DNA of 64,000 bases from Burkholderiales bacterium (GTDB lineage: Bacteria; Pseudomonadota; Gammaproteobacteria; Burkholderiales; SG8-41). Of this stretch, positions 4,449 through 20,387 are shown piece after piece. A program made the translations under genes and the position numbers. Location: the NCBI GenBank assembly GCA_030833315.1, contig JAURHM010000003.1:38081-102080 (forward strand), written 5' to 3'. How positions within the stretch are numbered: the stretch's first letter is position 1; every line of letters begins with the position of its first letter. The notes under the pieces are model-generated. The model saw nothing but the letters and a program-made list of their open reading frames with translations. It was not told where the DNA came from and made no database searches.

Positions 4449-4531
4449 GTCACTCAGGCATCACCACAGTCTGGAACCGCATTTCTCGTCAGCACCGCGC
4501 CGTCTTACAATGACGGCCACGCAGTAACAAC

Positions 4532-4626
4532 GGAAGGGAATCGCTCCCGGTGGGGCGGCCGGACTTCAAACCCGGTAGGGGCCGCGAGCGGTCCTGTGTG
4601 GGTTCGACTCCCACTCTCTTCCGCCA
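4532..4626 (+). tRNA. selC: tRNA-Sec (anticodon UCA)
   Basis: - 95 nt.
- 8-bp acceptor stem GGAAGGGA/TCTCTTCC with one G-U pair.
- 6-bp D stem CGCTCC/GGGGCG with 4-nt loop.
- Anticodon loop CTTCAAA, with TCA at 4566-4568.
- Long variable arm GGGGCCGC-GA-GCGGTCCT.
- 5-bp T stem GTGGG/CCCAC with TTCGACT loop.
- Discriminator G plus encoded CCA.
- Close to the E. coli selC layout. Confidence 0.95.
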
Positions 4627-4681
4627 CTCATCCAGTCCGTCGGCCATCACGTGCCGGCACGCATTGCCGGGGAGATCGACC

Positions 4682-6067
4682 ATGTCATTCGCCACAGATT
4701 TATCCATTAAAATCAATGATTTGCAGTACAACACCCTGCCGGCGGAAGCCGTGCACTGGGCCAAGGTCGGCATCCTCGACACCGTCGGCGTGACAATTGC
4801 CGGCGCCGCAGAAGATGCCACGCGGATCCTGCTCGGCGTCTCCGGCTCCAGCAGCGGCCCCTCACTGGTGTTCGGCCACGCACGGCGCATCGGCGCGCTC
4901 GATGCGGCGCTGGTCAACGGCACTGCTTCCCATGCGCTGGACTTTGACGATTGCAACAACACACTCGGCGGTCACCCTTCGGTGCCCATCCTGCCCGCAC
5001 TGTTTGCACTCGCCGATGAAACCGGCGCCACAGGCAAAGACTTCATCGCCGCCTATGTCGCCGGCTTCGAAACCGAATGCAAGCTGTCGATGGTGGTGAA
5101 TTTCCACCAGTACACCAAAGGCTGGCATCCGACGACCACCATCGGCGTGTTCGGCAGTGCCGCAGCCTGCGCCCACCTGCTGAAACTGTCGTTTGAAAAA
5201 ACCGCCACTGCGCTGTCGATCGCCGCATCGCTCGCTGCCGGCGTCAAATCAAATTTCGGCACCATGACCAAACCGCTGCATGTCGGCCACTGCGCGCGCA
5301 GCGGCCTGTTCGCCGCGCTGCTCGCCCGCGACGGCTTCACTGCCGGTGACAAGGCCTTCGAACACAAGCAGGGTTATTTCGAAGTGTTCAACGGCGCCGG
5401 CAATTACGACGCGAGCAAGGCGATTCCGGCGTGGGCCAATCCGCTCGACATCACCCGCCCCGGCATCGCCATCAAGTCCTATCCCTGCTGCGGCGGCACC
5501 CACCCGGCGATCGACTGCATGCTCGAACTGGTACAGAAGCACAACCTGAAACCCGAGCAGGTCGCGCGCATCGATTCGTGGACGCACACCCGTCGCCTCG
5601 AACACACCAACCGTCCGGATCCGCAGTCCTACCTCGACGCCAAGTTCAGCGTGCAATACACGCTGGCCCGCGCGCTGAAGGACCGCACGGTCAAGCTCGA
5701 ACACTTTGAAGGTGATAACTGGAAAGATCCGGCGACGCGCGCCATCCTGCCGAAAATCCACGTTGCGGCGTACACCACGGAACAGTTTCCCGTCGACAAC
5801 CACTTCGGCGCCGAAGTCAAAGTCACGCTGGCCGACGGCCGCGTGGTCAGCACCAAGACCGACCAGGCGCTGGGCCGCAGCGTCGACAAGCCGCTGCCGG
5901 CCGACATGCTCAAAGCCAAGTTCGACAACTGCGCCGCACGCGCGCTGTCCACGGACAATGTCGCGCGGCTGTATGCGGCCATCCAGGATTTCGAGAATGC
6001 GAAAGACGTGCGTGAAATTGCCGCACTCGCTGCCGGCAAGGGCGGACCGCAACGCGTTGCGGCTTGA
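4682..6067 (+). CDS. MmgE/PrpD family protein (paralogue 1, divergent subfamily)
   Basis: MSFATDLSIKINDLQYNTLPAEAVHWAKVGILDTVGV..., HALDFDD and TMTKPLHVGH are motifs of the 2-methylcitrate-dehydratase-like fold. I use the start at 4682 (GGGGAGA Shine-Dalgarno upstream) because the longer ORF from 4550 overlaps tRNA-Sec. Confidence 0.85.
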   Translation: MSFATDLSIKINDLQYNTLPAEAVHWAKVGILDTVGVTIAGAAEDATRILLGVSGSSSGPSLVFGHARRIGALDAALVNGTASHALDFDDCNNTLGGHPSVPILPALFALADETGATGKDFIAAYVAGFETECKLSMVVNFHQYTKGWHPTTTIGVFGSAAACAHLLKLSFEKTATALSIAASLAAGVKSNFGTMTKPLHVGHCARSGLFAALLARDGFTAGDKAFEHKQGYFEVFNGAGNYDASKAIPAWANPLDITRPGIAIKSYPCCGGTHPAIDCMLELVQKHNLKPEQVARIDSWTHTRRLEHTNRPDPQSYLDAKFSVQYTLARALKDRTVKLEHFEGDNWKDPATRAILPKIHVAAYTTEQFPVDNHFGAEVKVTLADGRVVSTKTDQALGRSVDKPLPADMLKAKFDNCAARALSTDNVARLYAAIQDFENAKDVREIAALAAGKGGPQRVAA

Positions 6068-6108
6068 ACACGCTCAAAAAACAACACAGCAATACTCAGG
6101 GGAACACT

Positions 6109-6900: not shown

Positions 6901-6946
6901 ACAGGATTTAGATACAGGATATAGACACGTCCACCACCGTCCGGTC

Positions 6947-7774
6947 TCAGGCCGGCCAGTCGAGCCAGTCGCACAGCGCGCCGCCCATGATCAGTTCCAG
7001 ATCATCGGCCGTGAGCCAGGGCATTTCTTCGGTAAACACCGTCACGCACTGGCGATAGGTGCACTTAAGCCGGGTCAGGTCGCTGCCCCAGAACAGGCGT
7101 CCGGGACCGAAGGCGTCATAGACGCGCTTCACGTAGCCATGCAGGTTGCGGTAGGGATAAGGCTCGGTTGAATAGCCGGGCAACGCGCTGACCTTCACAC
7201 CCACATTGGGCCGCTTCGCAATCGCGAGCAGCATTTCAATATCACGAAATGCTTCATCATCCTTGGCGCCGCTGGCCAGCGCCATGTGGTCGAGGATGAT
7301 GCGCAGTTGCGGGTGCCGTGCGGCCACCGCATCCACCAAACTGACCGCCGGCTGATCCACGCCGATGTAAACCGGCACCCTTGCCGCTTCGGCCTCTGCC
7401 CACAAGCAGCCCATGTATTCGGGGTTGGACAACCGGTCCATGTATTTCTTGAAATTAAAACGCAGACCCAGCATGCCTGGTTGCGCCCGCCAGTTCGCCA
7501 GCGCGCCCAGCGATTCCGGTAGCGCCGGGTTGATCTTGCCCATGACGGCAAACTGTCCTGGATGCGACTGTACGGCATCCAGTGCAAGATCATTGCGCGT
7601 ACGATCAAGGCTTGGCGGCACGATGACCACACGATCAACACCGGCGGCCTGCATTTCCTGCAGCAGTTCGTTTTTGCCGAAGGGTTGCGGACGGTGCGGC
7701 TTCGCACCTTCCGCCCAGGGACGCTCCGGCGTGTTGGCAGCCCAGATGTGGACCTGCGAATCAACGATCAACAT
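6947..7774 (-). CDS. Amidohydrolase_2 family metal-dependent hydrolase (lactonase/decarboxylase/hydratase type)
   Basis: MLIVDSQVHIW N-terminus, about 275 aa TIM-barrel size, typical of the Amidohydro_2 family (LigI, ACMSD and fuconolactonase relatives). Confidence 0.75.
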   Translation of the reverse strand: MLIVDSQVHIWAANTPERPWAEGAKPHRPQPFGKNELLQEMQAAGVDRVVIVPPSLDRTRNDLALDAVQSHPGQFAVMGKINPALPESLGALANWRAQPGMLGLRFNFKKYMDRLSNPEYMGCLWAEAEAARVPVYIGVDQPAVSLVDAVAARHPQLRIILDHMALASGAKDDEAFRDIEMLLAIAKRPNVGVKVSALPGYSTEPYPYRNLHGYVKRVYDAFGPGRLFWGSDLTRLKCTYRQCVTVFTEEMPWLTADDLELIMGGALCDWLDWPA

Positions 7775-7780
7775 GCCTGA

Positions 7781-8773
7781 TCAATTCGCAGTAATGCCCT
7801 GTTCGCGGATCACCCGGCCCCACTTTTCGTGCTCGACCTTGATGAAAGCGGCAAACGCCTCGGGACTGCTGGTCCAGACCTCACCCTGGCTCAGCATCGA
7901 CTCGATCACCTCGGGCCGACCGAGCACATGGACAATTTCCTTGTTCAGCCGCGCAATGATTGCCGGCGGTGTTTTAGCAGCGACAACAAAACCGTACCAG
8001 CTTTTCGATTCATAACCCGGCACGCCGGCCTCGGACACCGTCGGCACCTGCGGGAACTGTTTGGACCGGGTTCCGGTTCCCACTGCCAACGCACGCAGTC
8101 GGCCGGCCTGGATATTGGCGGCGACGCTCGCCGGTGACGCAAAGGCCATCTGCACTTCGCCGGACATCAGATTGACAATCGCCGGGCCGTTGCCTTTGTA
8201 CGGCACATGCAGCAGCTTGATTTTCGCCATCGACTGCAGCAAGCCCGTCGCCAGATGTCCTGAGCCACCAACACCGGAGGAACCGTAGGCAATCTCCCCC
8301 GGCCGTGCGCGGGCCAGCGCGAGGAATTCCTTTAGCGATTTCGCCGGCACCGAAGGATGCACCACCAGAAAGTTGCCGCTGGTCACCGCCGGCGTGACCG
8401 GCGCCAGATCCTTCAGCGGATCATAGGTCATGTTCTTGGTGAAAAAGCCGTTAACCGCGAGATTGCCCACAGCACCGAGCATCATCGTGTAACCATCGGG
8501 CGGCGATTTGGCGGTAAGTTCGCCGGCCAGCGACCCGTTGGCGCCGGCGCGGTTGTCCACCATCACGTTCTGACCGATGGCCTCACCCAGCTTGGTCGCA
8601 ACAATGCGCGCTACGGTATCGATACCGCCGCCGGGCGACTGCGAGGCGATGAGGCGGATGGGTCTTGATGGATAGGCGGCCTGCTGAGCTAGGGCGTCAT
8701 GTGACACCGCGATGAACATGCCCGATGCCAGAACAAAGCCTATCGCATTTTTGCTGAGTCTTGATGCGGTCAT
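7781..8773 (-). CDS. Bug/TctC family tripartite tricarboxylate transporter substrate-binding protein
   Basis: Signal peptide, then YPSRPIRLIASQSPGGGIDTVARIVATKLGEAIGQNVMVDNRAGANGSL, the Bug-family signature. GGAGA Shine-Dalgarno 7 nt upstream. Confidence 0.9.
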   Translation of the reverse strand: MTASRLSKNAIGFVLASGMFIAVSHDALAQQAAYPSRPIRLIASQSPGGGIDTVARIVATKLGEAIGQNVMVDNRAGANGSLAGELTAKSPPDGYTMMLGAVGNLAVNGFFTKNMTYDPLKDLAPVTPAVTSGNFLVVHPSVPAKSLKEFLALARARPGEIAYGSSGVGGSGHLATGLLQSMAKIKLLHVPYKGNGPAIVNLMSGEVQMAFASPASVAANIQAGRLRALAVGTGTRSKQFPQVPTVSEAGVPGYESKSWYGFVVAAKTPPAIIARLNKEIVHVLGRPEVIESMLSQGEVWTSSPEAFAAFIKVEHEKWGRVIREQGITAN

Positions 8774-8798
8774 TTCAATTTCTCCGGAACCGATTATT

Positions 8799-8846
8799 TG
8801 ATTTTATCCACGATGATTTAGTGGCTGATTTTGTGGGTATTGATTC
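8799..8846 (-). promoter_or_regulatory. Array of four TGATTT/C direct repeats in the AT-rich region upstream of the Bug-amidohydrolase genes (candidate activator sites)
   Basis: TGATTT at 8799, 8814 and 8826, and TGATTC at 8841 (spacing 15/12/15). Two adjacent copies extend to TGATTTAGTGG / TGATTTTGTGG. The array lies 26-73 nt upstream of the start codon. A TAAAAT -10-like hexamer on the coding strand has no good -35. Confidence 0.3.
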
Positions 8847-8916
8847 TTGCATTTGAGACTAACAGCGGCCCTCTTCAACGGCAAGCTGTACCTCGCAACA
8901 GAAATCGCTGCTGCCA

Positions 8917-9837
8917 CTAAGCGCGCATACGCGTATCCCGCTTCGATTGCCCCCACCGTTTTTTCAGCATTGCCAGAAACTCCTGCGTCGCCGGCGAAAG
9001 CGTCACGCCGCGGCGCCGGGTCACCGCCACCGTACGCGTCAGCCGCGGCTCCACCAGCGGCCGGCTGACCAGCTGCGGATTACGCCGGCCCGAAAATGCC
9101 AATGCCGGCACAGCAATCACGCCGATGCCGGCTTCGACCATGCCAAGTCCGGTCCAGAAAGAATGCTGCACCTCATAGGTCCAGCGCTGCTGCGGCAGGT
9201 TGCCGGGCAGACCGAAGTCGAGCAACGCGCGGTTGCCGCTCATGCGGCCGACAGTGATCACGCGATGCTGTTCCAGATCCGACCATTTCACCGTTTTCTT
9301 TTTCGCCAGCGGGTGTTCGCGGTGGCAGGCCAGCACGAAGGGATCCTCAAACAGCGCTTCGACCTCCAGTTCCGGTGCGTCAACGCCGGACAGCGTCAAC
9401 CCGAACTCGGCTTCGCCGCCGAGTACGGCCTGCAGCACTTCGTTGGCATGCACATCGAGGATGCGGATGCGGTTGTCTGGATGTTTCTCGCTGTAATCAC
9501 GGATCACCGGTGGCAGCATGTGCATCGCCGCCGTCGGCACGCAGGCCACCGTCACCTGACCCGCGCCGCGTTTGGCCATGTCGCGCAGCCCGGCCAGCGA
9601 ATTTTCCAGTTCCTCAATCAGCCGCCGCGCCTGCGGCAGGAAGTCACGGCCGACCGCGGTCAGACGCACCTTGCGCGTCGTGCGGTCGAGCAGGCGCACG
9701 CCGAGTTCTTCTTCCAGCCGGCTGATGCGCCGCGACAGCGCCGACTGCGACAGATGCAGCGCTGTCGCGGCCTGGTGGAAGCTGCCGAGTTCCGCAATGC
9801 GGGCAAACGCCTGCAGACCGTGGGTATCAATATTCAT
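8917..9837 (-). CDS. LysR family transcriptional regulator
   Basis: N-terminal wHTH LQAFARIAELGSFHQAATALHLSQSALSRRISRLEEELGVRLLDRTTRKVRLTAVG, about 300 aa, divergent from the TcuA-like operon. Confidence 0.92.
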   Translation of the reverse strand: MNIDTHGLQAFARIAELGSFHQAATALHLSQSALSRRISRLEEELGVRLLDRTTRKVRLTAVGRDFLPQARRLIEELENSLAGLRDMAKRGAGQVTVACVPTAAMHMLPPVIRDYSEKHPDNRIRILDVHANEVLQAVLGGEAEFGLTLSGVDAPELEVEALFEDPFVLACHREHPLAKKKTVKWSDLEQHRVITVGRMSGNRALLDFGLPGNLPQQRWTYEVQHSFWTGLGMVEAGIGVIAVPALAFSGRRNPQLVSRPLVEPRLTRTVAVTRRRGVTLSPATQEFLAMLKKRWGQSKRDTRMRA

Positions 9838-9846
9838 GAGAGGTAA

Positions 9847-9860
9847 TCACCGGCTGGTGA
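9847..9860. promoter_or_regulatory. Perfect inverted repeat TCACCGGCTGGTGA in the divergent LysR / TcuA-like intergenic region (candidate operator)
   Basis: TCACC-GGCT-GGTGA dyad 10 nt upstream of the LysR start codon. A second dyad, ATTG-TTG-CAAT, lies at 9889-9899. Confidence 0.25.
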
Positions 9861-9976
9861 CCTTTTGATTAATGTAAAAACGCGAACAATTGTTGCAATA
9901 ATCTCATTTTACTCAAGAGTGTGAGGGAAGGATAATTGCGCACCGTTCCAAACCTGCACACTGAAAGGCCTCAACA

Positions 9977-11461
9977 ATGTCCGAATATGATGTGATCGTT
10001 GTCGGAAAAGGCAACGCCGCCATGTGCGCCGCCCTGTCGGCCCATGACCAGGGCGCCAAAGTCGCCATCCTCGAAGCCGCGTCTGAAGACGAAGGTGGCG
10101 GCAACAGCCGTTTCGCTGGCGGCGTGATGCGTTTCGCCTACGAAACCGTCGAAGACCTGCTGAAAATCACGGACATCACCGAACAGGAAATCGCCGAGAC
10201 CGATTTCGGCACCAACACCCGCGAGGAATTCCTCGACAAGATCCACCAGCTCACCGCCTACCGTACCGATCCCGACCTGTCGGAGTATCTGGTCAACGAG
10301 AGCCTGCCGACGATGATCTGGTTGCGCGAAAAGGGCGTGAAGTTCGTGCCGAACTGGGGTCGCCAGTCGGCAGTAGTCGACGGCAAGCGCAAGTTCTTCG
10401 GCAACATGCCGATCGAAGCTCACGGCGGCGGCGCAGGCCTGGTGGAATATCTGAACAAAGCCGTCAAAAAAGCCGGCATCCCCGTGCATTTCGAAACCCG
10501 CGCGATCAAGCTGCTGTATGACGGCGCCACGGTCAGCGGTGTGCAGGTGCGACAGAAGGGTAAGTCCTTCGAAATGAAAGCCAAGGCGGTGGTGCTGGCC
10601 TGCGGCGGCTTCGAAGCCAACCCCGAAATGCGCGCGCGTTACCTCGGGCCGGGCTGGGAACTGGCGAAGGTTCGCGGCACGCGCTTCAACGTCGGTGACG
10701 GCCTGAAAATGGCGCTGGACATCGGCGCCGCGCCTTACGGTAACTGGTCGGGCTGCCATGCCACCGGCTGGGACCGTTACGCACCGGAGTTCGGCGACGT
10801 CAGCGTCGGCGACCAGTTCCAGAAACACAGCTACATTTTCGGCCTGCTGATCAATGCCGAAGGTAAACGTTTCGTCGATGAAGGTTATGACTTCCACTCC
10901 TTCACCTACGCCAAGTACGGCGGCGAAGTGCTGAAACAGCCGGGCCAGTTCGCGTGGCAGGTGTTCGACTCCAAGGTCACCAAGCTTCTGCGTTCGGAAT
11001 ACCGCATCAAATACATGACCAAGGTCAGCGCCAACACGCTGGAAGAACTCGCGACCAAGCTGGAAGGCGTCAATCCTGAACAATTCCTCAAGACGGTGAA
11101 CGAGTACAACGCCGCGGTGCAAAAGGATGTGCCGTTCAACCACGTAATCAAGGACGGCAAGGGAACGGTCGGCATCGAGCCGCCGAAATCGAACTGGGCA
11201 CAGGCGCTCGACGCCCCGCCCTACGACGCCTACGCCACCACCTGCGGCATTACCTTTACCTTCGGTGGTCTGCGTGTCGACAAGGAATCGGGCCAGGTGG
11301 TGGATTCGAACCAGCTGCCGATCCCCGGCCTGTATTGCGCCGGTGAAATGGTCGGCGGCCTGTTCTACTTCAACTACCCGAGCGGCACCGGTCTGGTGTC
11401 AGGCGCCGTGTTCGGCAAACTCGCGGGCACTTCTGCGGGCAAAGCCGCCAAACAGGGATAA
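9977..11461 (+). CDS. FAD-dependent dehydrogenase, TcuA (tricarballylate dehydrogenase)-like
   Basis: MSEYDVIVVGKGNAAMCAALSAHDQGAKVAILEAASEDEGGGNSRFAGGVMRF closely mirrors the TcuA/fumarate-reductase-flavoprotein N-terminus. C-terminal GLYCAGEMVGG motif. Confidence 0.8.
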   Translation: MSEYDVIVVGKGNAAMCAALSAHDQGAKVAILEAASEDEGGGNSRFAGGVMRFAYETVEDLLKITDITEQEIAETDFGTNTREEFLDKIHQLTAYRTDPDLSEYLVNESLPTMIWLREKGVKFVPNWGRQSAVVDGKRKFFGNMPIEAHGGGAGLVEYLNKAVKKAGIPVHFETRAIKLLYDGATVSGVQVRQKGKSFEMKAKAVVLACGGFEANPEMRARYLGPGWELAKVRGTRFNVGDGLKMALDIGAAPYGNWSGCHATGWDRYAPEFGDVSVGDQFQKHSYIFGLLINAEGKRFVDEGYDFHSFTYAKYGGEVLKQPGQFAWQVFDSKVTKLLRSEYRIKYMTKVSANTLEELATKLEGVNPEQFLKTVNEYNAAVQKDVPFNHVIKDGKGTVGIEPPKSNWAQALDAPPYDAYATTCGITFTFGGLRVDKESGQVVDSNQLPIPGLYCAGEMVGGLFYFNYPSGTGLVSGAVFGKLAGTSAGKAAKQG

Positions 11462-11472
11462 GGAACCACGCC

Positions 11473-12885
11473 ATGTCTTCGAACAAAGCACCACTGCTTG
11501 CCGATGCCACGCGTGATCTCGCCCGCTTCGGTGCGGCGCTGCATTACGAGGACATTCCCGCCGAGGCCGTTGCGCGCATCAAGCTCTCGCTGCTCGACAG
11601 CCTCGGTTGCTGCCTGTTCGGTGCAACGCTGCCGTGGACCCGGAAAGTTGCAGAACTTGCCGATGCTGAAAACGCCAAACCGGTCGCCACGCTGATCGGC
11701 CTCGGCCGCAAAACCTCGCCGGCGCTTGCCGCACTGGTCAACGGCACCTCGGGCCACGCTTTCGAGCTCGACGACATTCACAAGGAATCCATCGTCCATG
11801 CCGGTTCGATCGCCACACCGGTCGCGCTGAATCTGGCTGAGGCCAAAGGGTGCAAAGTCTCTGGCCGCGATCTTCTGACGGCGATGGTCGCCGGTTATGA
11901 AATCGGCCACCGCGTCGGCAATGCGGCAACGATGAGCCTGTTTTTCCGCGGTTTTCATCCGCAGGGCACTTCGGGCAGCTTCGTCGCTGCAGCAACCGCG
12001 GCGCACATGCTGAATCTCAATGCCACGCAATTCCAGCACGCGCTGGGCATGGCGGGTTCGCAGGCCGGCGGCCTGATGGCGGCGCAGGAAGGCGCAATGG
12101 TCAAACGCCTCCACAGCGGTCGCGCCGCGCAGAGCGGCATCTATGCCGCACAACTGGCCTCCCGAGATTTCACCGGCATTCTCGATGCACTGGAAGCGCC
12201 GTACGGCGGCTATCTGTCGACCTACTCAGACAAGCCGAATCCATCACGTCTCACCGACGGCCTCGGAAAAACCTGGGAAACCCTCAATGTCGGCTACAAG
12301 CCGCACGCCAGCGTCACCAGCATCCACAGTGCGCTCGACGCACTGTCGGAGCTGATGAAGGAACACAGCATCAAGGCTGGCGACATCGCCGAAGTCGAAA
12401 CCGGTTTGTCGCCGATGACGCATGTGCATTGCGCCTGGGAATACAAGGCACAGGGCGTCACTGCGGCGCAGATGAATCTTTATTACGGCATGGCGGTCAT
12501 TGCGCTCGACGGCGCAGCCTTCACCGAACAGTTCCGTGAAGCGCGCCTCGCCGATCCGCAGATTCTCGATTTCATCACGCGCATCAGCGCCTATGTGGAT
12601 CCCGAAATCGAAAAAATGGGCGCCCCCTTCCGCCACGCCTCGCGCGTGAAGATCACCACCCGTGCCGGCAAGGTGCATGAGAAACTGGCTCTGCACCGCC
12701 GCGGCAGCCCGGAGAATCCGCTGGCACCGGAAGAAGTCATTCACAAATTCCGTAACGTCGTGGCACCGTGCATGAGCAAAACCGACGCCGAACGCATCAT
12801 CACCACCGTTGACCGTTGCGAGGTAATCGCCGACATCAATGAACTCGCAGCAATCGTCGGCGCGGCGGTCACGCTGCCGAAGTAA
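11473..12885 (+). CDS. MmgE/PrpD family protein (paralogue 2)
   Basis: LDSLGCCLFGA, GHAFELDD and GAMVKRLHSGRAAQSG motifs. AAGGAA Shine-Dalgarno. 11-nt gap after the TcuA-like gene. Confidence 0.88.
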   Translation: MSSNKAPLLADATRDLARFGAALHYEDIPAEAVARIKLSLLDSLGCCLFGATLPWTRKVAELADAENAKPVATLIGLGRKTSPALAALVNGTSGHAFELDDIHKESIVHAGSIATPVALNLAEAKGCKVSGRDLLTAMVAGYEIGHRVGNAATMSLFFRGFHPQGTSGSFVAAATAAHMLNLNATQFQHALGMAGSQAGGLMAAQEGAMVKRLHSGRAAQSGIYAAQLASRDFTGILDALEAPYGGYLSTYSDKPNPSRLTDGLGKTWETLNVGYKPHASVTSIHSALDALSELMKEHSIKAGDIAEVETGLSPMTHVHCAWEYKAQGVTAAQMNLYYGMAVIALDGAAFTEQFREARLADPQILDFITRISAYVDPEIEKMGAPFRHASRVKITTRAGKVHEKLALHRRGSPENPLAPEEVIHKFRNVVAPCMSKTDAERIITTVDRCEVIADINELAAIVGAAVTLPK

Positions 12886-12955
12886 GCCCCGAAAAATACA
12901 CGCAAATATTTGTTTTTATTGATTATTTCATAGACCCGCCACAGGAATCCGCCCC

Positions 12956-14353
12956 ATGACCCAGCAATCGACGCAACCCCATCCCTACACCCGAGACATC
13001 GCCACCTTCGTTTCCGGCCTGACTTACGACAAGATTCCGGAAGCAGTGCGTCATCGCAACAAGCTGCTGATGCTCGATTCGCTGGGTTGTGCGCTGTATG
13101 GTGCGGACCTCGAATGGACCCGAATCCTGCAGGACAAGCTGAGCAGCATTGACAGCACCCGCCAGTGCACGGTGTGGGGCACCAACAAGAAACTCTCCGC
13201 GCCACATGCCGCGCTGGTCAACGGCACGCAGGTGCAGGGCTTTGAGCTCGATGACGTACATCGCGCCGGCGTGCTGCATGTCGGCGCCGTGGTGCTGCCC
13301 GCGCTGATCTCGGTTACGGAACTGAAGCCCGGCATGAGCGGCAAGGAATTCCTCACCGCCTCCGTTGCCGGTTACGAAATCGGCCCCCGCGTCGGCCTGT
13401 GCATGGGCCCGGCGCATATCGCTTCGGGCTGGCACTCGGGCGCCACACTGGGCGTGTTCTCCGCCGCCGCCGGCGCTGCGCGCGGCATGAAACTCGATGT
13501 CGACAAGACCGTGCACGCGCTGGGCATTGCCGGCACCCAGGCCGCCGGCCTGATGGCAGCGCAGTTCGGCGCGATGGTCAAACGCATGCATGCCGGCCGC
13601 TCCTCACAGTCCGGCCTCTACGGCGCACTGTTTGCCGAAGGCGGCTTCACCGGCATCGTCGACGTGCTCGAAAATCCGTACGGCGGTTTCTGCACGACAA
13701 TGTCGCAGTCGACCGACAAGTTCAATCTGAAGGAACTCACCGCCGGTTTCGGTGAAGTCTGGCAGACCATGGGCATCGCGCTGAAGTTCTACGCCTGCGT
13801 CGGCAGCAACCACACCACGCTGGATGCGCTGCGCGAGATGGACGCCGAGCGCCCCTTCACCGCCAAGGACGTGAAAAAAGTCGTGGTCTACGGCTCGGAA
13901 GTCACGGTGCACCACGTCGGCTGGCCGTACAAGCCGCAGGGCCTGACCTCGGCCCAACTGAACCTGCCCTACTGCATCGGCACCTGGCTGCTGGAAAAAG
14001 ACGTGTTCGTCGACCAGTTCACCGAAGCGATGGTTGCCGATCCGGCGCGCATCGCGGAGTCGAAAAAAGTCGAAGTGCTCCACGATCCGGCGATCACCGC
14101 GCTTGGTGCAAAAATGCGGCACAAGGTCCACGTGGAACTGCACCTCAACGACGGCACCGTGATGAAGCGCACTGTCGAATCCGCACGCGGCAGCGAGTTC
14201 CGTTTTGCCAGCGATGCCGACATCATCGCGAAATTCGAAAAACTGGCGGTCAAGGCACTGCCGAAGGCAAAGGTCGAGCAGCTGCGCGATGCGGTGATGG
14301 GCATCGAGAAGCTGCCCGATGCCGGTGTGCTGTCCAAACTGATGTCGGTTTAA
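12956..14353 (+). CDS. MmgE/PrpD family protein (paralogue 3)
   Basis: LDSLGCALYGA, QGFELDD and GAMVKRMHAGRSSQSG motifs, the same subfamily as paralogues 2 and 4. Confidence 0.88.
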   Translation: MTQQSTQPHPYTRDIATFVSGLTYDKIPEAVRHRNKLLMLDSLGCALYGADLEWTRILQDKLSSIDSTRQCTVWGTNKKLSAPHAALVNGTQVQGFELDDVHRAGVLHVGAVVLPALISVTELKPGMSGKEFLTASVAGYEIGPRVGLCMGPAHIASGWHSGATLGVFSAAAGAARGMKLDVDKTVHALGIAGTQAAGLMAAQFGAMVKRMHAGRSSQSGLYGALFAEGGFTGIVDVLENPYGGFCTTMSQSTDKFNLKELTAGFGEVWQTMGIALKFYACVGSNHTTLDALREMDAERPFTAKDVKKVVVYGSEVTVHHVGWPYKPQGLTSAQLNLPYCIGTWLLEKDVFVDQFTEAMVADPARIAESKKVEVLHDPAITALGAKMRHKVHVELHLNDGTVMKRTVESARGSEFRFASDADIIAKFEKLAVKALPKAKVEQLRDAVMGIEKLPDAGVLSKLMSV

Positions 14354-14363
14354 CGTTGCAACG

Positions 14364-15722
14364 ATGAGCGCCGCCAAGACCGCAGCAAGCACGCTGGCCG
14401 AGTTCGCCAACGGACTGACCTACGAGCAGATCCCGGCGGCGGCGCGCGAGCGCGCCCGCCAGTGCATCATCGACACCACCGGCGCGGCGCTGTTCGGTTC
14501 GCGCCTGCCATGGAGCAAAATTGTCGCCGGTCATGCCCGCAATTGCGGCGGCAACGGCAGCAGCCGCGTCATCGGTACCGGCCTCAAGGTCGCGCCGCCC
14601 GCGGCGGCCCTGGCGAACGGCGTGTGTTCACACGCCTTTGAACTCGACGGTCTGCGCAAACCCAGCGCCGGCGTGCATCCCGGCGCGATCCTGCTGCCGG
14701 CGGCACTTGCCGCGGGTGAGGCGCAAGGCGCCAGCGGCGAAGAGCTGCTGACCGCCTTCATCGCCGGCGCGGAAGTGATGTTCCGCATCGGCCTCGCCGC
14801 CAAACAATCCACCGAGTCGCTGGGCTTTCATGCGCCGGGCGTCAACGGCCCCTTCGGCTCTGCCATCGTTGCCGGCAAGCTGCTCGGGCTCAATGCCGCG
14901 CAGCTGACGCAGGCGCTGGGCATTGCCGGTTCTCTGGGCGGCGGCCTGCTCGCCTTCGCCAAAGCCGGTAACGGCGCGATGGTCAAACGCCTGCATATGG
15001 GTCGCGCGGCGGAAGCCGGCGTGGTCGCCGCATTGCTGGCCCGCGACGGTTACGAAGGTCCGGACAGCGTGCTGGAAGGCCAATACGGCTATCTCGAATC
15101 CTATTGCCGCGACGGCGACGCCTCGCAATTCACCAAGGATCTCGGCACGCATTTCGACATTGTTTATGCCTGCCTGAAACGTTATGCCTGCCACATCACC
15201 GCGCACACACCGGTGCAGTCATTGCAGGAACTGCGTGCAGAACACCACTTCAACGGTGATGATGTCGCCGCACTGACCATCCATGCCCGCCACAAAGTGC
15301 TGTCGCATCACGACATCCGCGAGCCGCGCGATGTCGCCGGTGCCCAGTACAGCGTGCCCTTCTGTTCGGCGATTGCGCTGTATTACGACGTCAATGATCC
15401 GATGGCCTTTTCGGAAACCGCGCTGAACGACGCCAAGGTACGCGCACTGGCACTGAAGCTGAAAGTCGTCGAGATGGGCCACGATGAAAAAGGCGGCGCC
15501 TGGTCTTCCCGCGTTGCCGTTGGATTGAAGGACGGCCGCCGTTTCGAACGCTTTGCCGAAGAATTCAAGGGCACGCCGGCATCGCCGCTGTCGGCGGAAG
15601 AACTGCAGACCAAGTTCATGCGTATGGCCGGGGCACATGCACCCGCTGCGGCCCTGCATGAACAGCTCGCGGCGCTGGAAAGCGTCGCCGACTGCCGTAC
15701 ACTGGCCATCAACGCCATCTGA
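14364..15722 (+). CDS. MmgE/PrpD family protein (paralogue 4)
   Basis: HAFELDG and GAMVKRLHMGRAAEAG motifs. 10-nt gap after paralogue 3. Confidence 0.88.
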   Translation: MSAAKTAASTLAEFANGLTYEQIPAAARERARQCIIDTTGAALFGSRLPWSKIVAGHARNCGGNGSSRVIGTGLKVAPPAAALANGVCSHAFELDGLRKPSAGVHPGAILLPAALAAGEAQGASGEELLTAFIAGAEVMFRIGLAAKQSTESLGFHAPGVNGPFGSAIVAGKLLGLNAAQLTQALGIAGSLGGGLLAFAKAGNGAMVKRLHMGRAAEAGVVAALLARDGYEGPDSVLEGQYGYLESYCRDGDASQFTKDLGTHFDIVYACLKRYACHITAHTPVQSLQELRAEHHFNGDDVAALTIHARHKVLSHHDIREPRDVAGAQYSVPFCSAIALYYDVNDPMAFSETALNDAKVRALALKLKVVEMGHDEKGGAWSSRVAVGLKDGRRFERFAEEFKGTPASPLSAEELQTKFMRMAGAHAPAAALHEQLAALESVADCRTLAINAI

Positions 15723-15748
15723 GCGCCGTAAACACCAAGGATTTCCCC

Positions 15749-16696
15749 ATGAACAAACTGCTGATCATCGCGCTGTCTGCGCTGGCCCTGCCCGCGCTGG
15801 CCGCCTATCCCGAAAAACCGGTGCGTCTGCTGGTGCCGCTCGCGGCCGGCGGCGGCATGGACACTACGGCACGTTCAATTGCCACACCGCTGGGTGAGCG
15901 CCTCGGCCAGACCGTCGTTGTCGACAACCGTCCGGGCGGCGGCGGCAACGTCGGCGTCGACATCATCCGCGAAGCCCCGGCTGACGGTCATACGCTGTTC
16001 ATGGGCAGCGCGACCTTCATCGTGCATCCGCTGCTCTACAAGGCGCGTTATGTGCCGACACGCGACTTCAGCACCATCACCCAGGTCACCAGCCAGCCCT
16101 ATGTGCTGATCGTGCATCCCGGCGTCGCCGCAAAAACCGTCAAGGAGCTGGTGGTCTATACCAAGGCCAATCCGAATAAGATCAATTACGCCTCATCAGG
16201 TCAGGGAAGCCTGATTCATCTGACCAGCGAACTGTTCAAGGTGCGCACCGGCGCCGACATGATGCACATCCCTTACAAGGGTATGGGCGCCGCCTACACC
16301 GACATGCTGTCGGGCCGTATCCAGGCCTCCTTCCCCAGCATCATCTCGGTGCTGCCGCACCTCAAAACCGGCAAGCTGCGCGCACTGGGCGTCACCACGC
16401 TGCATCGCGCGGCAACGCTACCCGATGTGCCCAGCATGAAGGAAGCCGGCGTCGCCGATTTCGACGTGTCGCAGTGGTACGGCCTGTTCGCTCCCATCGG
16501 TACCTCGCGCAACGTGATCGACCGCGTCTACCGCGAGGTCGCGGTGATCCTCAAGTCCGCCGACCTGCAGAAACGCATGGCGGCCGACGGCTCCGACCCG
16601 GTCGGCAGCACGCCGGCCGAATTCGCCGTTCATGTCAAAGCCGAGACGGCGCGATGGTCCGAGGTCATCAAAAAGTCGAACATCAAAGCCGACTGA
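15749..16696 (+). CDS. Bug/TctC family substrate-binding protein (second copy)
   Basis: Signal peptide MNKLLIIALSALALPALA, then YPEKPVRLLVPLAAGGGMDTTARSIATPLGERLGQTVVVDNRPGGGG. AAGGA Shine-Dalgarno. Confidence 0.9.
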   Translation: MNKLLIIALSALALPALAAYPEKPVRLLVPLAAGGGMDTTARSIATPLGERLGQTVVVDNRPGGGGNVGVDIIREAPADGHTLFMGSATFIVHPLLYKARYVPTRDFSTITQVTSQPYVLIVHPGVAAKTVKELVVYTKANPNKINYASSGQGSLIHLTSELFKVRTGADMMHIPYKGMGAAYTDMLSGRIQASFPSIISVLPHLKTGKLRALGVTTLHRAATLPDVPSMKEAGVADFDVSQWYGLFAPIGTSRNVIDRVYREVAVILKSADLQKRMAADGSDPVGSTPAEFAVHVKAETARWSEVIKKSNIKAD

Positions 16697-16763
16697 ATAC
16701 TTCCTCCCTCAGCCGCGCACGCCGCCGCGGCAGCAGGTACAATCGCAGCGGTTTGCAAACGTC

Positions 16764-16796
16764 GCGCCCGCCGCGTCATCGCCGGCGGGCGCTTTT
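16764..16796 (+). terminator. Rho-independent terminator closing the TcuA-like/PrpD/Bug operon
   Basis: 10-bp GC stem GCGCCCGCCG / CGGCGGGCGC with a 9-nt loop, followed by TTTT. Confidence 0.75.
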
Positions 16797-16870
16797 GCGT
16801 TGTAAACCGGTGGTGACAAACCCGCCCCAGAGCTGGAAAATAGTTCAATTAAATCAAACGGTTAATTCTC

Positions 16871-18901
16871 ATGCTGATCTATGCGCTGACCATTTTCGCG
16901 AGTGCCTTCCTGCTGTTTCTGGTGCAACCGATCATGGCCAAACAGATCCTGCCCTGGTTCGGCGGTTCCGCCGCGGTTTGGACCACCTGCCTGATGTTTT
17001 TCCAATTGGTACTGCTGTTCGGCTACGCCTACGCCGACTGGACCATCCGTTTTCTCAAACCGCGTCCGCAGGTGATCCTGCACGTGGTGCTGCTTGTCGC
17101 GAGCCTGGTATCGCTGCCGATCATCGCCGGCACCGGCTGGAAACCCGAAGGCGCTGAAGATCCGACCTGGCTGATCCTCGGTCTGCTCGCGGCAACCATC
17201 GGCCTGCCTTATTTCCTGCTGTCGACCACCGGCCCGCTGCTGCAGGCCTGGTTCTCGCGCAGTTTCCCCGACGCCAAAAACGTCTATCGCCTGTTCGCAC
17301 TGTCCAACGGCGCTTCGCTGATCGCGCTGATCGCCTATCCCTTTGCGGTGGAACCCTGGGTCACCACGCACGAACAATCGATCGGCTGGAGCGCCGGTTA
17401 TGCGCTGTTCGCCGCTTTGTGCGCGACATCGGCGGTGTTCAGCCTGCGCCCCTCGCAAAGCACCGCAGCCACGCCGGCCAGCGGCATCGCCACGGCGGAC
17501 GGTCCGCCGCCGCGCGCCACGGACTATTTCCTGTGGCTGGTGCTGGCGGCGATGGGTTCGTTCATGCTGATCGCGGTTACCAACCACATCACCCACGACG
17601 TCGCCTCGGTCCCCTTCCTGTGGATTCTGCCGCTGTCCCTGTACCTGCTGTCCTTCGTGCTGTGTTTTGAGGGCCGCAACTGGTACCAGCGTACGATTTT
17701 CTTGGGGCCGCTGCTGGTGATTGTCGGCGCGATGGCCTGGGCGCTGCACACCGACGGCGGCGTGATGAACATCAAGGAAGCAATTCCGCTGTTCGCCGTC
17801 GGCCTGTTCGTGATGTGCATGTTCTTCCACGGCGAACTCGCCGCGCTGAAACCGGCACCGCGCCATCTCACCGGTTATTACCTGATGATTTCGCTGGGCG
17901 GCGCCGTCGGCGGCCTGCTGGTAGGCTTTGTCGCGCCCAAGCTGTTCAACACCTATTACGAATTCGGCTTCGGCCTGGTGTTTACTGCCTTGCTCGCGGC
18001 CTATGTCACGCGGCGCGTGATGATCCTCGTGCCGGTGCTGGCGCTGGCGGCTGCGGGATTCACCGGTTACCACGTAAACAACTACATCAACATGCTGTCG
18101 AATGACGCCCGGGTGATGGCGCGTAATTTCTACGGCACACTGCGCGTCAAGGATTACGGCGACGCCAACAGCGCCACCGGCACACGCCGCCTGATGCACG
18201 GTGTGATCATGCACGGCGAGCAGTTCCTGCTGCCGGAAAAGCAGCAGCAGCCGACCACCTACTACGGCCCGGATTCCGGCATCGGCCGCATCATCAGCGT
18301 CAAACGCGAAAACGCTGCCGCCATCAATGTCGGCGTGGTCGGCCTCGGCGCGGGCACGCTGGCGGCATACGGACGCAAGGGCGACAACTACCGCTTTTAT
18401 GAAATCAATCCGCAGGTCATCGACGTCGCGATGAAGGAGTTCACCTACCTGACCTCGACGCCGGCAAAAATTGAAAACCTTCTCGGCGACGCGCGCCTGA
18501 CCATGGAACGCGAAACGCCGCAGAACTACGATGTGCTCGCCATAGACGCCTTCTCCAGCGATTCCATCCCCACCCACCTGATGACCCATCAGGCGATGGG
18601 TGTATATATCAAGAACATGAAACCGGACGGCGTCATCGCCTTCCACGTCACCAACCGTTTCCTGCACCTCGCCCCGGTAGTTAAACGCATCGCCGATGAA
18701 ACCGGCCTGCACACGGTGCTGATCAGCGATGATCCGGAAGACGGCTCGGATTTCGCCAAGACCGACTGGGTGCTGGTGTCGCGCAGTGAAAAGGCACTGG
18801 CCCACGCACGCATCGCAGAGGCCAAACAGCCGATCGGCAAAATTCCCGGCCTGCGACTGTGGACGGACAGCTTCAACAACCTGTTCAAGATCCTCAAATA
18901 A
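16871..18901 (+). CDS. Fused polytopic membrane / spermidine-synthase-like (class I SAM-fold) protein
   Basis: N-terminal roughly 450 aa of hydrophobic helices (MLIYALTIFASAFLLFLVQPIMAKQILPWFGGSAAVWTTCLMFFQ). C-terminal GVVGLGAGTL ... DVLAIDAFSSDSIP ... DGVIAFH matches the spermidine-synthase/methyltransferase fold. Confidence 0.75.
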   Translation: MLIYALTIFASAFLLFLVQPIMAKQILPWFGGSAAVWTTCLMFFQLVLLFGYAYADWTIRFLKPRPQVILHVVLLVASLVSLPIIAGTGWKPEGAEDPTWLILGLLAATIGLPYFLLSTTGPLLQAWFSRSFPDAKNVYRLFALSNGASLIALIAYPFAVEPWVTTHEQSIGWSAGYALFAALCATSAVFSLRPSQSTAATPASGIATADGPPPRATDYFLWLVLAAMGSFMLIAVTNHITHDVASVPFLWILPLSLYLLSFVLCFEGRNWYQRTIFLGPLLVIVGAMAWALHTDGGVMNIKEAIPLFAVGLFVMCMFFHGELAALKPAPRHLTGYYLMISLGGAVGGLLVGFVAPKLFNTYYEFGFGLVFTALLAAYVTRRVMILVPVLALAAAGFTGYHVNNYINMLSNDARVMARNFYGTLRVKDYGDANSATGTRRLMHGVIMHGEQFLLPEKQQQPTTYYGPDSGIGRIISVKRENAAAINVGVVGLGAGTLAAYGRKGDNYRFYEINPQVIDVAMKEFTYLTSTPAKIENLLGDARLTMERETPQNYDVLAIDAFSSDSIPTHLMTHQAMGVYIKNMKPDGVIAFHVTNRFLHLAPVVKRIADETGLHTVLISDDPEDGSDFAKTDWVLVSRSEKALAHARIAEAKQPIGKIPGLRLWTDSFNNLFKILK

Positions 18902-18956
18902 GCGCGCCGCGGCCAGACGCCGCGGCCGCAGCGGGATTATCATCGGCAGCTTGAAA

Positions 18957-20387
18957 ATGAAGGGTGCAACGCCCATCTTGGAAAGCATGTCGGCCATAAA
19001 TCTCATCTCTTTGTTTTTAAAGAACTTTCTGAATCCCGGTGTGTTATGGGCGCTGGGCACTGCATTGCTGGCGGTGAGCGCCCTGGCGCAGACGGCGGCT
19101 CCCGATGTGCGCGGGCTGCCGACGCTGGCGCCGCTGGTCAATCAGGTCACGCCGGCCGTGGTTAACGTCTCGGTGATTACCCGCGCACCGATGGAAGACA
19201 ACCCGCTGTTTCGCGACCCCTTCTTCCGCCGCTTTTTCAATCTGCCCGACAAACCACAGCGCAAGGAACAGGCGGCGGGCTCCGGCGTCATCGTTGACGC
19301 CGCCCGCGGTTACATCCTGACCAACAACCATGTCATCAAGGATGCCGAGCAGGTCCTGATCACGCTGAAGGACCGCCGCCAGTTTCCCGCCAAGCTGGTC
19401 GGCACAGACCCCGGCACCGACATCGCGGTGCTGAAGATCAGCGCATCCAACCTCAGCGCGCTGCGCATCGGCGACTCCGACACGCTGCAGGTCGGCGACT
19501 ATGTCATGGCCATCGGTAACCCTTTCGGCATCGGCCAGACCGTGACCTCGGGCATCGTCAGCGCGTTGGGCCGCAGCGGGCTTTCTGTCGAAGGTTACGA
19601 AGATTTCATCCAGACCGACGCCTCGATCAACCCGGGTAACTCCGGCGGCGCACTGGTCAATCTGCGCGGCGAACTCATCGGTATCAACACCGCCATCATC
19701 GGACCGGCCGGCGGCAACGTCGGCATCGGCTTTGCCGTGCCGTCAGTGATGGCACGGTCGGTGATGGAACAGATCGTGCGCTACGGCGAAGTACGCCGCG
19801 GCCGGCTGGGTATCGAAATGGCGGATGTGCCGCCAGACGCGCAGCGCCGGCTGAAGCTTCCTTCGCTCGACGGCGCGCTGGTTGCCAATATCGAATCGGG
19901 TTCGCCGGCGGAAAAAGCCGGCTTGCGCAAAGGGGATGTGGTCACTGCACTCAACGGGCGGATGGTACGCGGTCCGTCGGATCTGCGTGCCCGCCTGGGT
20001 CTGACGCCGGTCGGCGAAGAAGTCGACATGACGGTGGCGCGCGAAGGCGGCACTCAACGCATCCGCACCCGTATCGCACCGCCGCAGCCTGCAGGCAATG
20101 GTGAAATGCTGGCAGTCGTGCAGCTGCCTGGCATGCGCGTGGTTGAAATCGAACGCGGCAGCCCGCTGTTTGAACGCCTCAACGGCGGCGGCATCGTGGT
20201 GGCCGCAGTCGAGGCCGGCAGCCGTGCCTTCCAGGCGGGCTTCCGCCCCGGAGACATCATCTACGCGGTGAACCGCCGGCGAATACAAACCACAGCCGAG
20301 TTCCAGAAATTGCTGAGCACCGCCGAGCGCGGTTATGCGGTGAGTCTGCTGCGGGGAGATTTCAGCGTCACCATCATCGTTCGCTGA
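18957..20387 (+). CDS. Do/DegP/DegQ family periplasmic serine endoprotease
   Basis: Catalytic triad contexts TNNHVI, DIAVLKI and GNSGGALVN, plus two PDZ-like regions. The start is uncertain (ATG at 18957 or 18987). The ORF from 18729 overlaps the upstream gene. Confidence 0.88.
   Translation: MKGATPILESMSAINLISLFLKNFLNPGVLWALGTALLAVSALAQTAAPDVRGLPTLAPLVNQVTPAVVNVSVITRAPMEDNPLFRDPFFRRFFNLPDKPQRKEQAAGSGVIVDAARGYILTNNHVIKDAEQVLITLKDRRQFPAKLVGTDPGTDIAVLKISASNLSALRIGDSDTLQVGDYVMAIGNPFGIGQTVTSGIVSALGRSGLSVEGYEDFIQTDASINPGNSGGALVNLRGELIGINTAIIGPAGGNVGIGFAVPSVMARSVMEQIVRYGEVRRGRLGIEMADVPPDAQRRLKLPSLDGALVANIESGSPAEKAGLRKGDVVTALNGRMVRGPSDLRARLGLTPVGEEVDMTVAREGGTQRIRTRIAPPQPAGNGEMLAVVQLPGMRVVEIERGSPLFERLNGGGIVVAAVEAGSRAFQAGFRPGDIIYAVNRRRIQTTAEFQKLLSTAERGYAVSLLRGDFSVTIIVR

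Follow-up and report, generated by a model that had tools for sequence, protein, structure and literature searches.

The operon and its conserved linkage

A 64-kb stretch of contig JAURHM010000003.1 from a Burkholderiales bacterium (hereinafter the window, meaning that whole stretch, whose own numbering is used throughout) carries on its forward strand, at 9977-16696, a set of five genes that the listing of open reading frames (ORFs) and profile searches resolve into an FAD protein resembling TcuA, three members of the MmgE/PrpD family and a receptor of the Bug type. They follow each other with gaps of 11, 70, 10 and 26 nt. An earlier note on this stretch had described this same-strand order, with its tight packing and a single 70-nt AT-rich spacer, had assigned the genes to the TcuA-type, MmgE/PrpD and Bug/TctC families, and had placed a divergent LysR regulator at the head and a strong terminator at the tail; all of these are present, and the family assignments hold in profile searches. 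The flagged genes are thus correct, but the span falls short of the module, to which a fourth MmgE/PrpD paralogue, PrpD4, also belongs. The elements of the module and its control are as follows:

4682..6067, plus strand: PrpD4, fourth MmgE/PrpD paralogue, IDS-epimerase-like (iminodisuccinate epimerase), with both Pfam MmgE_PrpD domains
8917..9837, minus strand: divergent LysR-type regulator with HTH_1 and LysR_substrate domains
9868..9936, plus strand: conserved regulatory block, from promoter scan, palindrome and 15-locus intergenic alignment
9977..11461, plus strand: TcuA-like FAD flavoprotein (TcuAL), 494 aa, cytoplasmic, with an FAD_binding_2 domain
11473..12885, plus strand: PrpD1, clade-specific paralogue with MmgE/PrpD Pfam domains
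12886..12955, plus strand: AT-rich 70-nt spacer before PrpD2, 43% GC
12956..14353, plus strand: PrpD2, with MmgE/PrpD Pfam domains, of the flavoprotein's PrpD partners the one conserved most widely
14364..15722, plus strand: PrpD3, with MmgE/PrpD Pfam domains, obligate companion of PrpD2
15749..16696, plus strand: BugD, an orphan periplasmic solute receptor belonging to the family of tripartite tricarboxylate transporters (TTT), PF03401
16764..16796, plus strand: intrinsic terminator ending the operon, a 10-bp GC stem followed by UUUU

A pattern scan with one genome per species recovered at least 531 relatives of the flavoprotein, of which the best 80 (73-99% identity; their loci carry handles of the type L001) were examined. 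Nearly all of these are labelled as Burkholderiales or Betaproteobacteria, the carriers including Polynucleobacter rarus, P. kasalickyi, Limnohabitans, Polaromonas and Rubrivivax; the closest match, at 99%, comes from an uncultured Burkholderiales long-read metagenome-assembled genome (MAG; isolate ME-04may21-LR-25), probably from a lake sample. Several MAGs with a 76-91%-identical flavoprotein go under the names 'Streptomycetaceae', 'Streptomyces sp.' or 'Bordetella parapertussis' (L012, L023, L025, L027, L036, L039, L042, L045 and L053); their gene content resembles that of the other Burkholderiales loci, so that mistakes in binning or taxonomy probably explain these labels.

Linkage was scored in the 41 of the 80 loci that are well flanked (at least 5 kb on either side), with PrpD-like ORFs assigned to orthologue groups. 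In 36 of these 41, the flavoprotein gene has one or more PrpD orthologues within 3 kb, and in 34 it has a Bug gene within that distance. The linkage to PrpD spans Burkholderiaceae, Comamonadaceae, Rhodocyclales and Casimicrobiaceae, the most frequent partner being PrpD2 (33/41), followed by PrpD4 (29/41), PrpD3 (20/41, each time with PrpD2) and PrpD1 (12/41). PrpD1 is restricted to the window's own clade (L001-L016) plus L078. PrpD3 is never found without PrpD2, which it directly follows in 26 loci (median gap 10 nt), while PrpD4 directly precedes the flavoprotein gene in 42 loci, 19 of them with gaps of 30 nt or less; in general, the ORF-based gaps between module genes are short or overlapping. 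When anchored on PrpD2 instead, both contigs obtained have the flavoprotein gene directly upstream (the call in L087 being a truncated 294-aa product), and more than 100 PrpD2 relatives at 78-93% identity are found among the matches listed. Between families, the flavoprotein and PrpD2 are conserved at 73-80%.

The ancestral module appears to have been PrpD4-flavoprotein-PrpD2(-PrpD3)-Bug; in the present lineage, the LysR gene, with or without an additional cassette (see the last section), appears to have been inserted after PrpD4, and PrpD1 to have been added after the flavoprotein gene. The triple PrpD array singled out earlier is hence real in the window, but it is a clade-specific derivative and not the widely conserved core. 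Around this core the loci differ in further genes, none of which occurs in the window: UGSC-family proteins (10 of the 80 loci), an isocitrate lyase (ICL)/phosphoenolpyruvate (PEP)-mutase-family lyase (9, and additionally L088), AtuA (DUF1446) + DUF4387 pairs (7), M20 amidohydrolases behind PrpD2 (6) and acyl-CoA dehydrogenases (6).

The control region displays comparable constancy among close relatives. In at least 14 of the closest loci (L001-L016), an orthologue of the LysR gene (81-97% identity) is found at this same place; the protein reaches no NCBIfam equivalog cutoff, the best being PsrA with 259 bits against 540. Between it and the flavoprotein gene lie an ATTAATG element, a 10-bp palindrome, AACAATTGTT (9885-9894), and, downstream of these, a promoter-like pair from the promoter scan, with a -35 element TTTACT (9908-9913) and a -10 element GATAAT (9931-9936). 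These elements are near-invariant across 15 aligned intergenic regions whose flanks have diverged. A LysR-type regulator gene next to a conserved dyad upstream of a putative promoter is the arrangement of LysR-type divergent regulation, which we accordingly predict for this operon. The spacer at 12886-12955 has 43% GC as against 62% for the operon, and the gap between the flavoprotein gene and PrpD2 is also long where PrpD1 is missing (median ~150 nt), making the spacer a possible internal start of a PrpD2-PrpD3 unit. The terminator at 16764-16796 folds with -29.8 kcal/mol (z -3.2) ahead of its UUUU tract. An Rfam scan of 4000-19500 detected no riboswitch or leader RNA, its sole match being a tRNA-Sec.

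BugD is a PF03401 protein (E 2.9e-66) with a Sec signal peptide (MNKLLIIALSALALPALA). It is equidistant from the structures of BugE, Bug27 and the terephthalate-binding protein, which are glutamate, nicotinate/citrate and terephthalate binders; hence, no ligand can be inferred for it. In tblastn searches, TcuB, TcuC, TctA, TctB, EtfA and EtfB are all absent from the window, as the earlier note had stated for TcuB, TctA and TctB at the operon; across the 80 related loci TcuB, TcuC, TctB, EtfA and EtfB are likewise absent and TctA is present in one. The lack of TctAB is uninformative, because most tctC/Bug genes are orphans without nearby membrane components (PMC11452294).

Active sites of the PrpD paralogues and the flavoprotein

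All four paralogues contain the MmgE_PrpD_N and MmgE_PrpD_C domains (E 1e-25 to 1e-68), and PrpD1, PrpD2 and PrpD3 share, as had been claimed, the motif GAMVKR(L/M)HxGR, which includes the catalytic lysine equivalent to K198 of IDS epimerase. Their pairwise identity is 34-41% (40.8% between PrpD1 and PrpD2), and thus they are old paralogues and a recent tandem duplication is ruled out. Against solved structures, a profile of the four proteins best matches the IDS epimerase of Agrobacterium tumefaciens BY6 (PDB 2HP0; E 5.6e-83), next to cis-aconitate decarboxylases (CAD; E ~1e-72 to 1e-75), with the true 2-methylcitrate dehydratase (PDB PrpD 1szq) at E 6.7e-17. An identity as 2-methylcitrate dehydratase was considered and rejected, with the paralogues scoring 27-47 bits against cutoffs of 458-950 (TIGR02330, NF006943 and NF042438). 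No NCBIfam equivalog covers any of the four proteins. By these comparisons we place them in the IDS-epimerase/cis-aconitate-decarboxylase branch of the family, not among the 2-methylcitrate dehydratases. PrpD4 is clearly the closest of the four to IDS epimerase, which is its best PDB match (2hp0; E 2.6e-65, 33.7% identity).

At the catalytic positions of IDS epimerase, namely H85, D88, H99, Y145, H150, K198 and K266 (list from PMC12290011), each orthologue group has a fixed signature: H-E-H-F-H-K-K in PrpD1 (18/18 orthologues), Q-E-H-I-H-K-K in PrpD2 (53/53), H-E-H-E-H-K-K in PrpD3 (29/29) and H-D-H-Y-H-K-K, the same set as in IDS epimerase, in PrpD4 (46/46). Thus, H99, H150, K198 and K266 together with an acidic residue at position 88 are kept by all four paralogues and are invariant in the 146 orthologues. 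Since these are the enolate-forming or -stabilizing residues, none of the four is a pseudogene, and their being recent or decaying duplicates is excluded by their divergence together with this invariance. What distinguishes them is position 145 (2HP0 numbering), where the tyrosine acting as the second base of the two characterized epimerases (IDS epimerase and methylsuccinate isomerase) is retained by PrpD4 only (46/46) and is replaced by Phe in PrpD1 (18/18), Ile in PrpD2 (53/53) and Glu in PrpD3 (29/29); PrpD2 additionally has Gln for His85. As a difference from the IDS epimerase system, the operon shows no gene of the IDS C-N lyase type.

CAD, a non-epimerase member of the family, is proposed to work with one base and to do without the tyrosine of the epimerases (PMC12290011), and PrpD1-3 are in the same state. 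CAD/IRG1/ACOD1 and the 'IRG1' of B. subtilis belong to the same branch with identities below 30%; in contrast to their association with itaconate production, the context here is catabolic with an uptake receptor, and decarboxylation is only a candidate activity for the present proteins. More generally, the substrates of characterized MmgE/PrpD enzymes all contain a four-carbon 1,4-dicarboxylate unit, and just four activities are known for a family with a homologue in about 19% of prokaryotic species (PMC12290011). The database names of the orthologues are inconsistent ('TcuA', 'PrpD', 'aconitate decarboxylase' and 'MmgE/PrpD family'), with many PrpD2 orthologues named 'aconitate decarboxylase' by the Joint Genome Institute (JGI).

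The flavoprotein has an FAD_binding_2 domain (PF00890, E 2e-45) over residues 5-470, begins with a dinucleotide-binding motif (DVIVVGKGNAAMCAA) and lacks a signal peptide. Its namesake TcuA converts tricarballylate to cis-aconitate, as related in PMC10468695 with reference to Lewis & Escalante-Semerena 2006, and TcuB is the FADH2:quinone oxidoreductase of the tcu operon (PMC10468695). The TcuA-type label given earlier is apt as a statement of family resemblance and probably not as one of orthology: the protein passes NF006130 'TcuA' (546.9 bits, cutoff 369) but falls below the stricter TIGR02485 (237.7 bits, cutoff 372.55), while the Salmonella TcuA, with which it shares 33.7% identity, clears both (792 and 687 bits, respectively). 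NF006130 is broad, because it also admits a Paracoccus homologue from a sulfonate-type context. On these grounds we regard the flavoprotein as a distant paralogue of TcuA. As an aside on annotation, NF006130 and TIGR02485 share the product name TcuA, and the NF006130 cutoff, by admitting the PrpD-linked (547 bits) and sulfonate-linked (613 bits) subfamilies that are ~34% identical to the characterized enzyme, is a source of systematic over-annotation.

The resemblance to TcuA extends to the active site. At the positions corresponding to H365/R402/H504/H505/R544 of Fcc3, both the flavoprotein and the Salmonella TcuA have H/Y/T/F/Y, i.e., the catalytic and clamp residues of fumarate reductase are replaced alike in the two. 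The solved structures nearest to the flavoprotein are soluble fumarate reductases, through their flavin domains (E ~1e-36), and urocanate reductase. In the tcuRABC system of Salmonella enterica, too, a LysR regulator is located upstream of a flavoprotein that is soluble, belongs to FAD_binding_2 and has this His/Tyr/Thr-Phe/Tyr site. By analogy, the chemistry of the flavoprotein is likely α,β-dehydrogenation of a succinate-type backbone, and the flavoprotein constitutes a distinct TcuA-like subfamily that has most plausibly remained such a dehydrogenase. The two systems differ in their company: the authentic tcuA on a Salmonella plasmid adjoins tcuR, tcuB and the major facilitator superfamily (MFS) transporter gene tcuC, whereas here neither TcuB nor an MFS protein of the TcuC type is present, a Bug receptor would serve uptake instead, and MmgE/PrpD enzymes, which the tcu operon lacks, accompany the flavoprotein.

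Homologues with 57-58% identity, which we assign to a different subfamily on account of that divergence, occur in L081 (7168-13018; Paracoccus versutus pTAV3) and L082 (6162-16514; a Bradyrhizobium plasmid). Their neighbors comprise a phosphosulfolactate-synthase-like gene (4-nt overlap), an SsuA/NrtA-type ABC transporter, a sulfate-exporter-family protein, a CoA transferase and a CoA-ester lyase, suggesting an uncharacterized sulfonate pathway (sulfosuccinate- or sulfopropionate-like?) that uses the same flavoprotein family. The Bradyrhizobium homologue also adjoins a divergent etfBA pair, a weak hint that electron transfer flavoprotein (ETF) may be the electron acceptor of the flavoprotein studied here. 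Further plasmid homologues have heterogeneous or unannotated contexts and add no clue.

A predicted route for substituted succinates and its rivals

We consider it somewhat more probable than the reverse that these genes constitute a LysR-induced catabolic module for a substituted succinate, i.e., an acid with a C4 1,4-dicarboxylate backbone, possibly a tricarboxylate. The conserved linkage of the orthologues, the restriction of Tyr145 to PrpD4, the TcuA-like active-site pattern of the flavoprotein and the C4 1,4-dicarboxylate unit of the family's substrates all point in this direction, as do the enolate-forming residues kept by all four paralogues, the lack of TcuB, the etfBA genes beside the Bradyrhizobium homologue, the lyase of some relatives, the conserved promoter and palindrome beside the LysR gene and the signal peptide of BugD. 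The analysis shows the gene families, their conserved linkage, active sites that are retained yet differentiated, and the lack of TcuB; from these we infer the nature of the substrate, the order of the reactions, the reaction types of PrpD1-3 and the electron acceptor as follows. BugD would capture the acid in the periplasm, and a TctAB unit encoded elsewhere, as for most Bug receptors, would import it. PrpD4, with the full two-base set of IDS epimerase, would then equilibrate the stereoisomers at the substituted carbon. Next, the flavoprotein would remove two hydrogens across C2-C3, as TcuA does on tricarballylate, yielding a substituted fumarate or maleate (aconitate-like), with ETF or quinone, as an acceptor that is soluble or shared, taking up the electrons in place of TcuB. 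Finally, the PrpD2 and PrpD3 pair, joined here by PrpD1, would carry the product toward central metabolism through one-base chemistry, be it hydration/dehydration, allylic isomerization or decarboxylation, with the ICL/PEP-mutase-family lyase being available for this in some relatives.

Two known systems resemble parts of this route. The (S)-(R)-methylsuccinate isomerase of the Pseudomonas aeruginosa PA0881 type is an MmgE/PrpD enzyme that epimerizes a 2-substituted succinate for a stereospecific next step; it occurs chiefly in Betaproteobacteria, where a Bug gene can be close by (PMC12290011), and its logic matches the one proposed for PrpD4 and the flavoprotein. However, it always stands beside methylsuccinyl-CoA dehydrogenase and a CoA transferase (PMC12290011), whereas the present operon has no CoA enzymes and its dehydrogenase is the TcuA-like flavoprotein, presumably acting on the free acid. 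In the methylcitrate cycle (PrpD/AcnB/PrpB), a PrpD-fold enzyme similarly acts on an alkene resembling aconitate, and the hydroxy acid is cleaved by a lyase of the ICL/PEP-mutase family. The lyase of some relatives fits a comparable scheme of desaturation, hydration and cleavage, but this operon itself has no lyase, citrate-synthase-like or aconitase gene.

Several observations weigh against the proposed module. The missing Tyr145 is no proof of lyase-type chemistry in PrpD1-3, as the Glu of PrpD3 could act as a base in its place, and the B. subtilis 'IRG1' carries the tyrosine yet has no known function. The ETF idea is based on a single homologue at 57-58% identity. In 5 of the 41 well-flanked loci the flavoprotein has no PrpD orthologue at all, and the neighborhoods are mosaic, with many Bug genes and variable M20 hydrolase, AtuA/DUF4387, UGSC-family and acyl-CoA dehydrogenase genes, so that a general 'Bug island', and not one pathway, could lie behind some of the linkage. 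Moreover, none of the orthologues has a known substrate, activity or phenotype.

A more far-reaching version, which we hold to be speculative and rather doubtful, sees in the module a CoA-independent route resembling the methylcitrate cycle for free alkyl- or carboxyalkyl-succinates, in which a TcuB-independent, ETF-linked dehydrogenase and the epimerase PrpD4 would be combined with three new lyase or isomerase activities. The obligate pair of PrpD2 and PrpD3 would possibly form a heteromer, and the substrates may be, for example, small polycarboxylates that humic or terpenoid matter sets free in lakes and soils. If true, a family for which just four activities have been characterized would gain several new types of reaction.

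The foremost competing explanation, unlikely in our estimate, is that the substrate is a heteroatom-substituted succinate, i.e., an N- or S-(1,2-dicarboxyethyl) adduct such as an iminodisuccinate-type aminopolycarboxylate, an opine-like N-substituted aspartate or a succinated thiol, from which the flavoprotein would free oxaloacetate by oxidizing the C-N or C-S bond in the manner of L-aspartate oxidase, while the PrpD proteins would epimerize several stereocentres. The catalytic set that PrpD4 shares with its nearest solved relative, IDS epimerase, agrees with such a substrate, several stereocentres would account for several paralogues, and the amidohydrolases of relatives (M20 genes behind PrpD2 in 6 loci and an Amidohydro_1 gene in L088) keep an N-substituted substrate possible. 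L-aspartate oxidase itself belongs to the FAD_binding_2 superfamily, and nadB is a weak NCBIfam match of the flavoprotein. However, L-aspartate oxidase also retains the Arg/His/Arg set of fumarate reductase, in place of which the flavoprotein has the Tyr/Thr-Phe/Tyr pattern of TcuA; the epimerase tyrosine is missing in three of the four PrpD proteins; and the amidohydrolases are found in a minority of loci and not in this operon.

Ordinary tricarballylate utilization, with the flavoprotein as a true TcuA, TcuB and TctAB encoded elsewhere and the PrpD genes as bystanders, is less likely still and highly improbable. It would take at face value the name given by NF006130, the active-site pattern shared with the Salmonella enzyme and a LysR gene at the operon head as with tcuR. 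Yet the flavoprotein is only a third identical to authentic TcuA and fails TIGR02485, on which the latter scores 687 bits, NF006130 is broad enough to pass the Paracoccus homologue, and TcuB, which is adjacent in Salmonella, is absent from all 80 related loci. Further, tricarballylate is achiral and cis-aconitate enters the tricarboxylic acid cycle directly, leaving the tight coupling to two to four PrpD enzymes unexplained.

Two last explanations we regard as about equally improbable. In one, the flavoprotein would work reductively, as a soluble enoate- or fumarate-type reductase saturating aconitate, itaconate or mesaconate produced or isomerized by the PrpD proteins. Its nearest solved structures are reductases and no dedicated oxidizing partner such as TcuB is encoded at the locus; however, it has other residues in place of fumarate reductase's catalytic proton donor, Arg402, and substrate clamps, His504 and Arg544, known reductases of its family carry a haem or FMN donor domain that it lacks, the carriers are aerobic freshwater and soil heterotrophs, and TcuA, the sole characterized enzyme with the same active-site pattern, is a dehydrogenase. 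In the other, there would be no single pathway, but members of families expanded in Burkholderiales (Bug and MmgE/PrpD) co-located under one regulator in a plastic 'Bug island', which suits the mosaic neighborhoods rich in extra Bug and PrpD-like genes and the cassette that varies among near-identical relatives, but not the adjacency of orthologue to orthologue that survives rearrangement across families, the very close or overlapping reading frames, the unfailing company of PrpD3 with PrpD2 and the very high conservation of the flavoprotein and PrpD2 between families.

Returning to the proposed module for substituted succinates, all of its parts come from known families, and it is the combination of genes and the four differentiated PrpD types that have not been previously described. 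In the literature searched there is no characterized orthologous operon and no paper combining TcuA and PrpD; together with the lack of an NCBIfam equivalog for the PrpD proteins, this bears out the earlier description of an uncharacterized carboxylate-processing operon. Few families of Betaproteobacteria are as expanded and as little understood as the MmgE/PrpD and Bug proteins, and the module offers a clean entry point, with four paralogue groups of fixed, distinct signatures tied to one flavoprotein and one receptor, and with cultured Polynucleobacter species among its carriers. It is a well-defined, testable target for enzyme discovery rather than a surprise: solving it would provide new MmgE/PrpD reactions, tell how TcuA-like dehydrogenases work without TcuB and correct the propagated names 'TcuA', 'PrpD' and 'aconitate decarboxylase', and it might reveal a carboxylic acid relevant to freshwater and soil carbon turnover.

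Neighboring genes and the wider locus

Upstream of and within the gap between PrpD4 and the LysR gene lie the following:

4532-4626, plus strand: tRNA-Sec (anticodon TCA), Rfam 75.9 bits, also called by ARAGORN
6064-6900, plus strand: short-chain dehydrogenase/reductase (SDR) by Pfam, with a 4-nt overlap with the PrpD4 stop
6947-7774, minus strand: Amidohydro_2 protein (lactonase- or decarboxylase-type) by Pfam
7781-8773, minus strand: second Bug receptor by Pfam

The SDR/Amidohydro_2/Bug cassette (6064-8773) comes and goes among relatives with an 89-99% identical flavoprotein. It is present in L004, L005, L011, L012 and L014 and missing from L001, whose flavoprotein is 99% identical, as well as from L006, L008 and L009. 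Its presence or absence is thus a recent insertion or deletion within the locus, and the cassette is therefore variable and probably not part of the core.

The tRNA-Sec is 55 nt upstream of PrpD4 and is preceded by selA, which is truncated at the start of the window, and by selB, a TrxR-like gene and yaeQ (48-2965). A mechanical PrpD4 ORF of 505 aa from 4550 runs across the tRNA-Sec; this overlap marks the longer ORF as an artefact, and hence the true start of PrpD4 is at 4682. Given these upstream genes, the locus is chromosomal. Farther downstream, gene order and sizes in the ORF listing resemble a ribosomal-protein/rpoC region, a judgement made from the listing. A genomic island at the tRNA-Sec was considered and is unsupported, the composition being flat and a TrxR-like gene recurring directly upstream of the module in several of the more distant loci (the tRNA-Sec scan covers the window only).

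Among the related loci, AtuA + DUF4387 pairs lie just upstream of PrpD4 in L017, L018, L021, L029, L048, L051, L074, L087 and L088, and pairs of 108-aa and 463-aa proteins with weak UGSC-family matches lie upstream of PrpD4 in L026, L028, L037, L042 and L048. Both kinds of pairs are functionally obscure.

Downstream, the terminator at 16764-16796 parts the operon from a conserved neighbor at 16871-18901 (plus strand), which codes for a 676-aa protein with ~11 predicted membrane helices and, at its C-terminus, a domain resembling spermidine synthase. It matches NF037959 (fused MFS/spermidine synthase) with 46.4 bits against a cutoff of 40 and no Pfam model at E<=0.001, and is followed by a gene for a DegP-type protease. 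Farther on, at 21789-22754 (minus strand) and beside an MFS transporter gene, is an EgtD-like, histidine-specific S-adenosylmethionine (SAM)-dependent methyltransferase (Methyltransf_33, E 4e-114), which has no relation to the PrpD operon and may relate to ergothioneine or hercynine.

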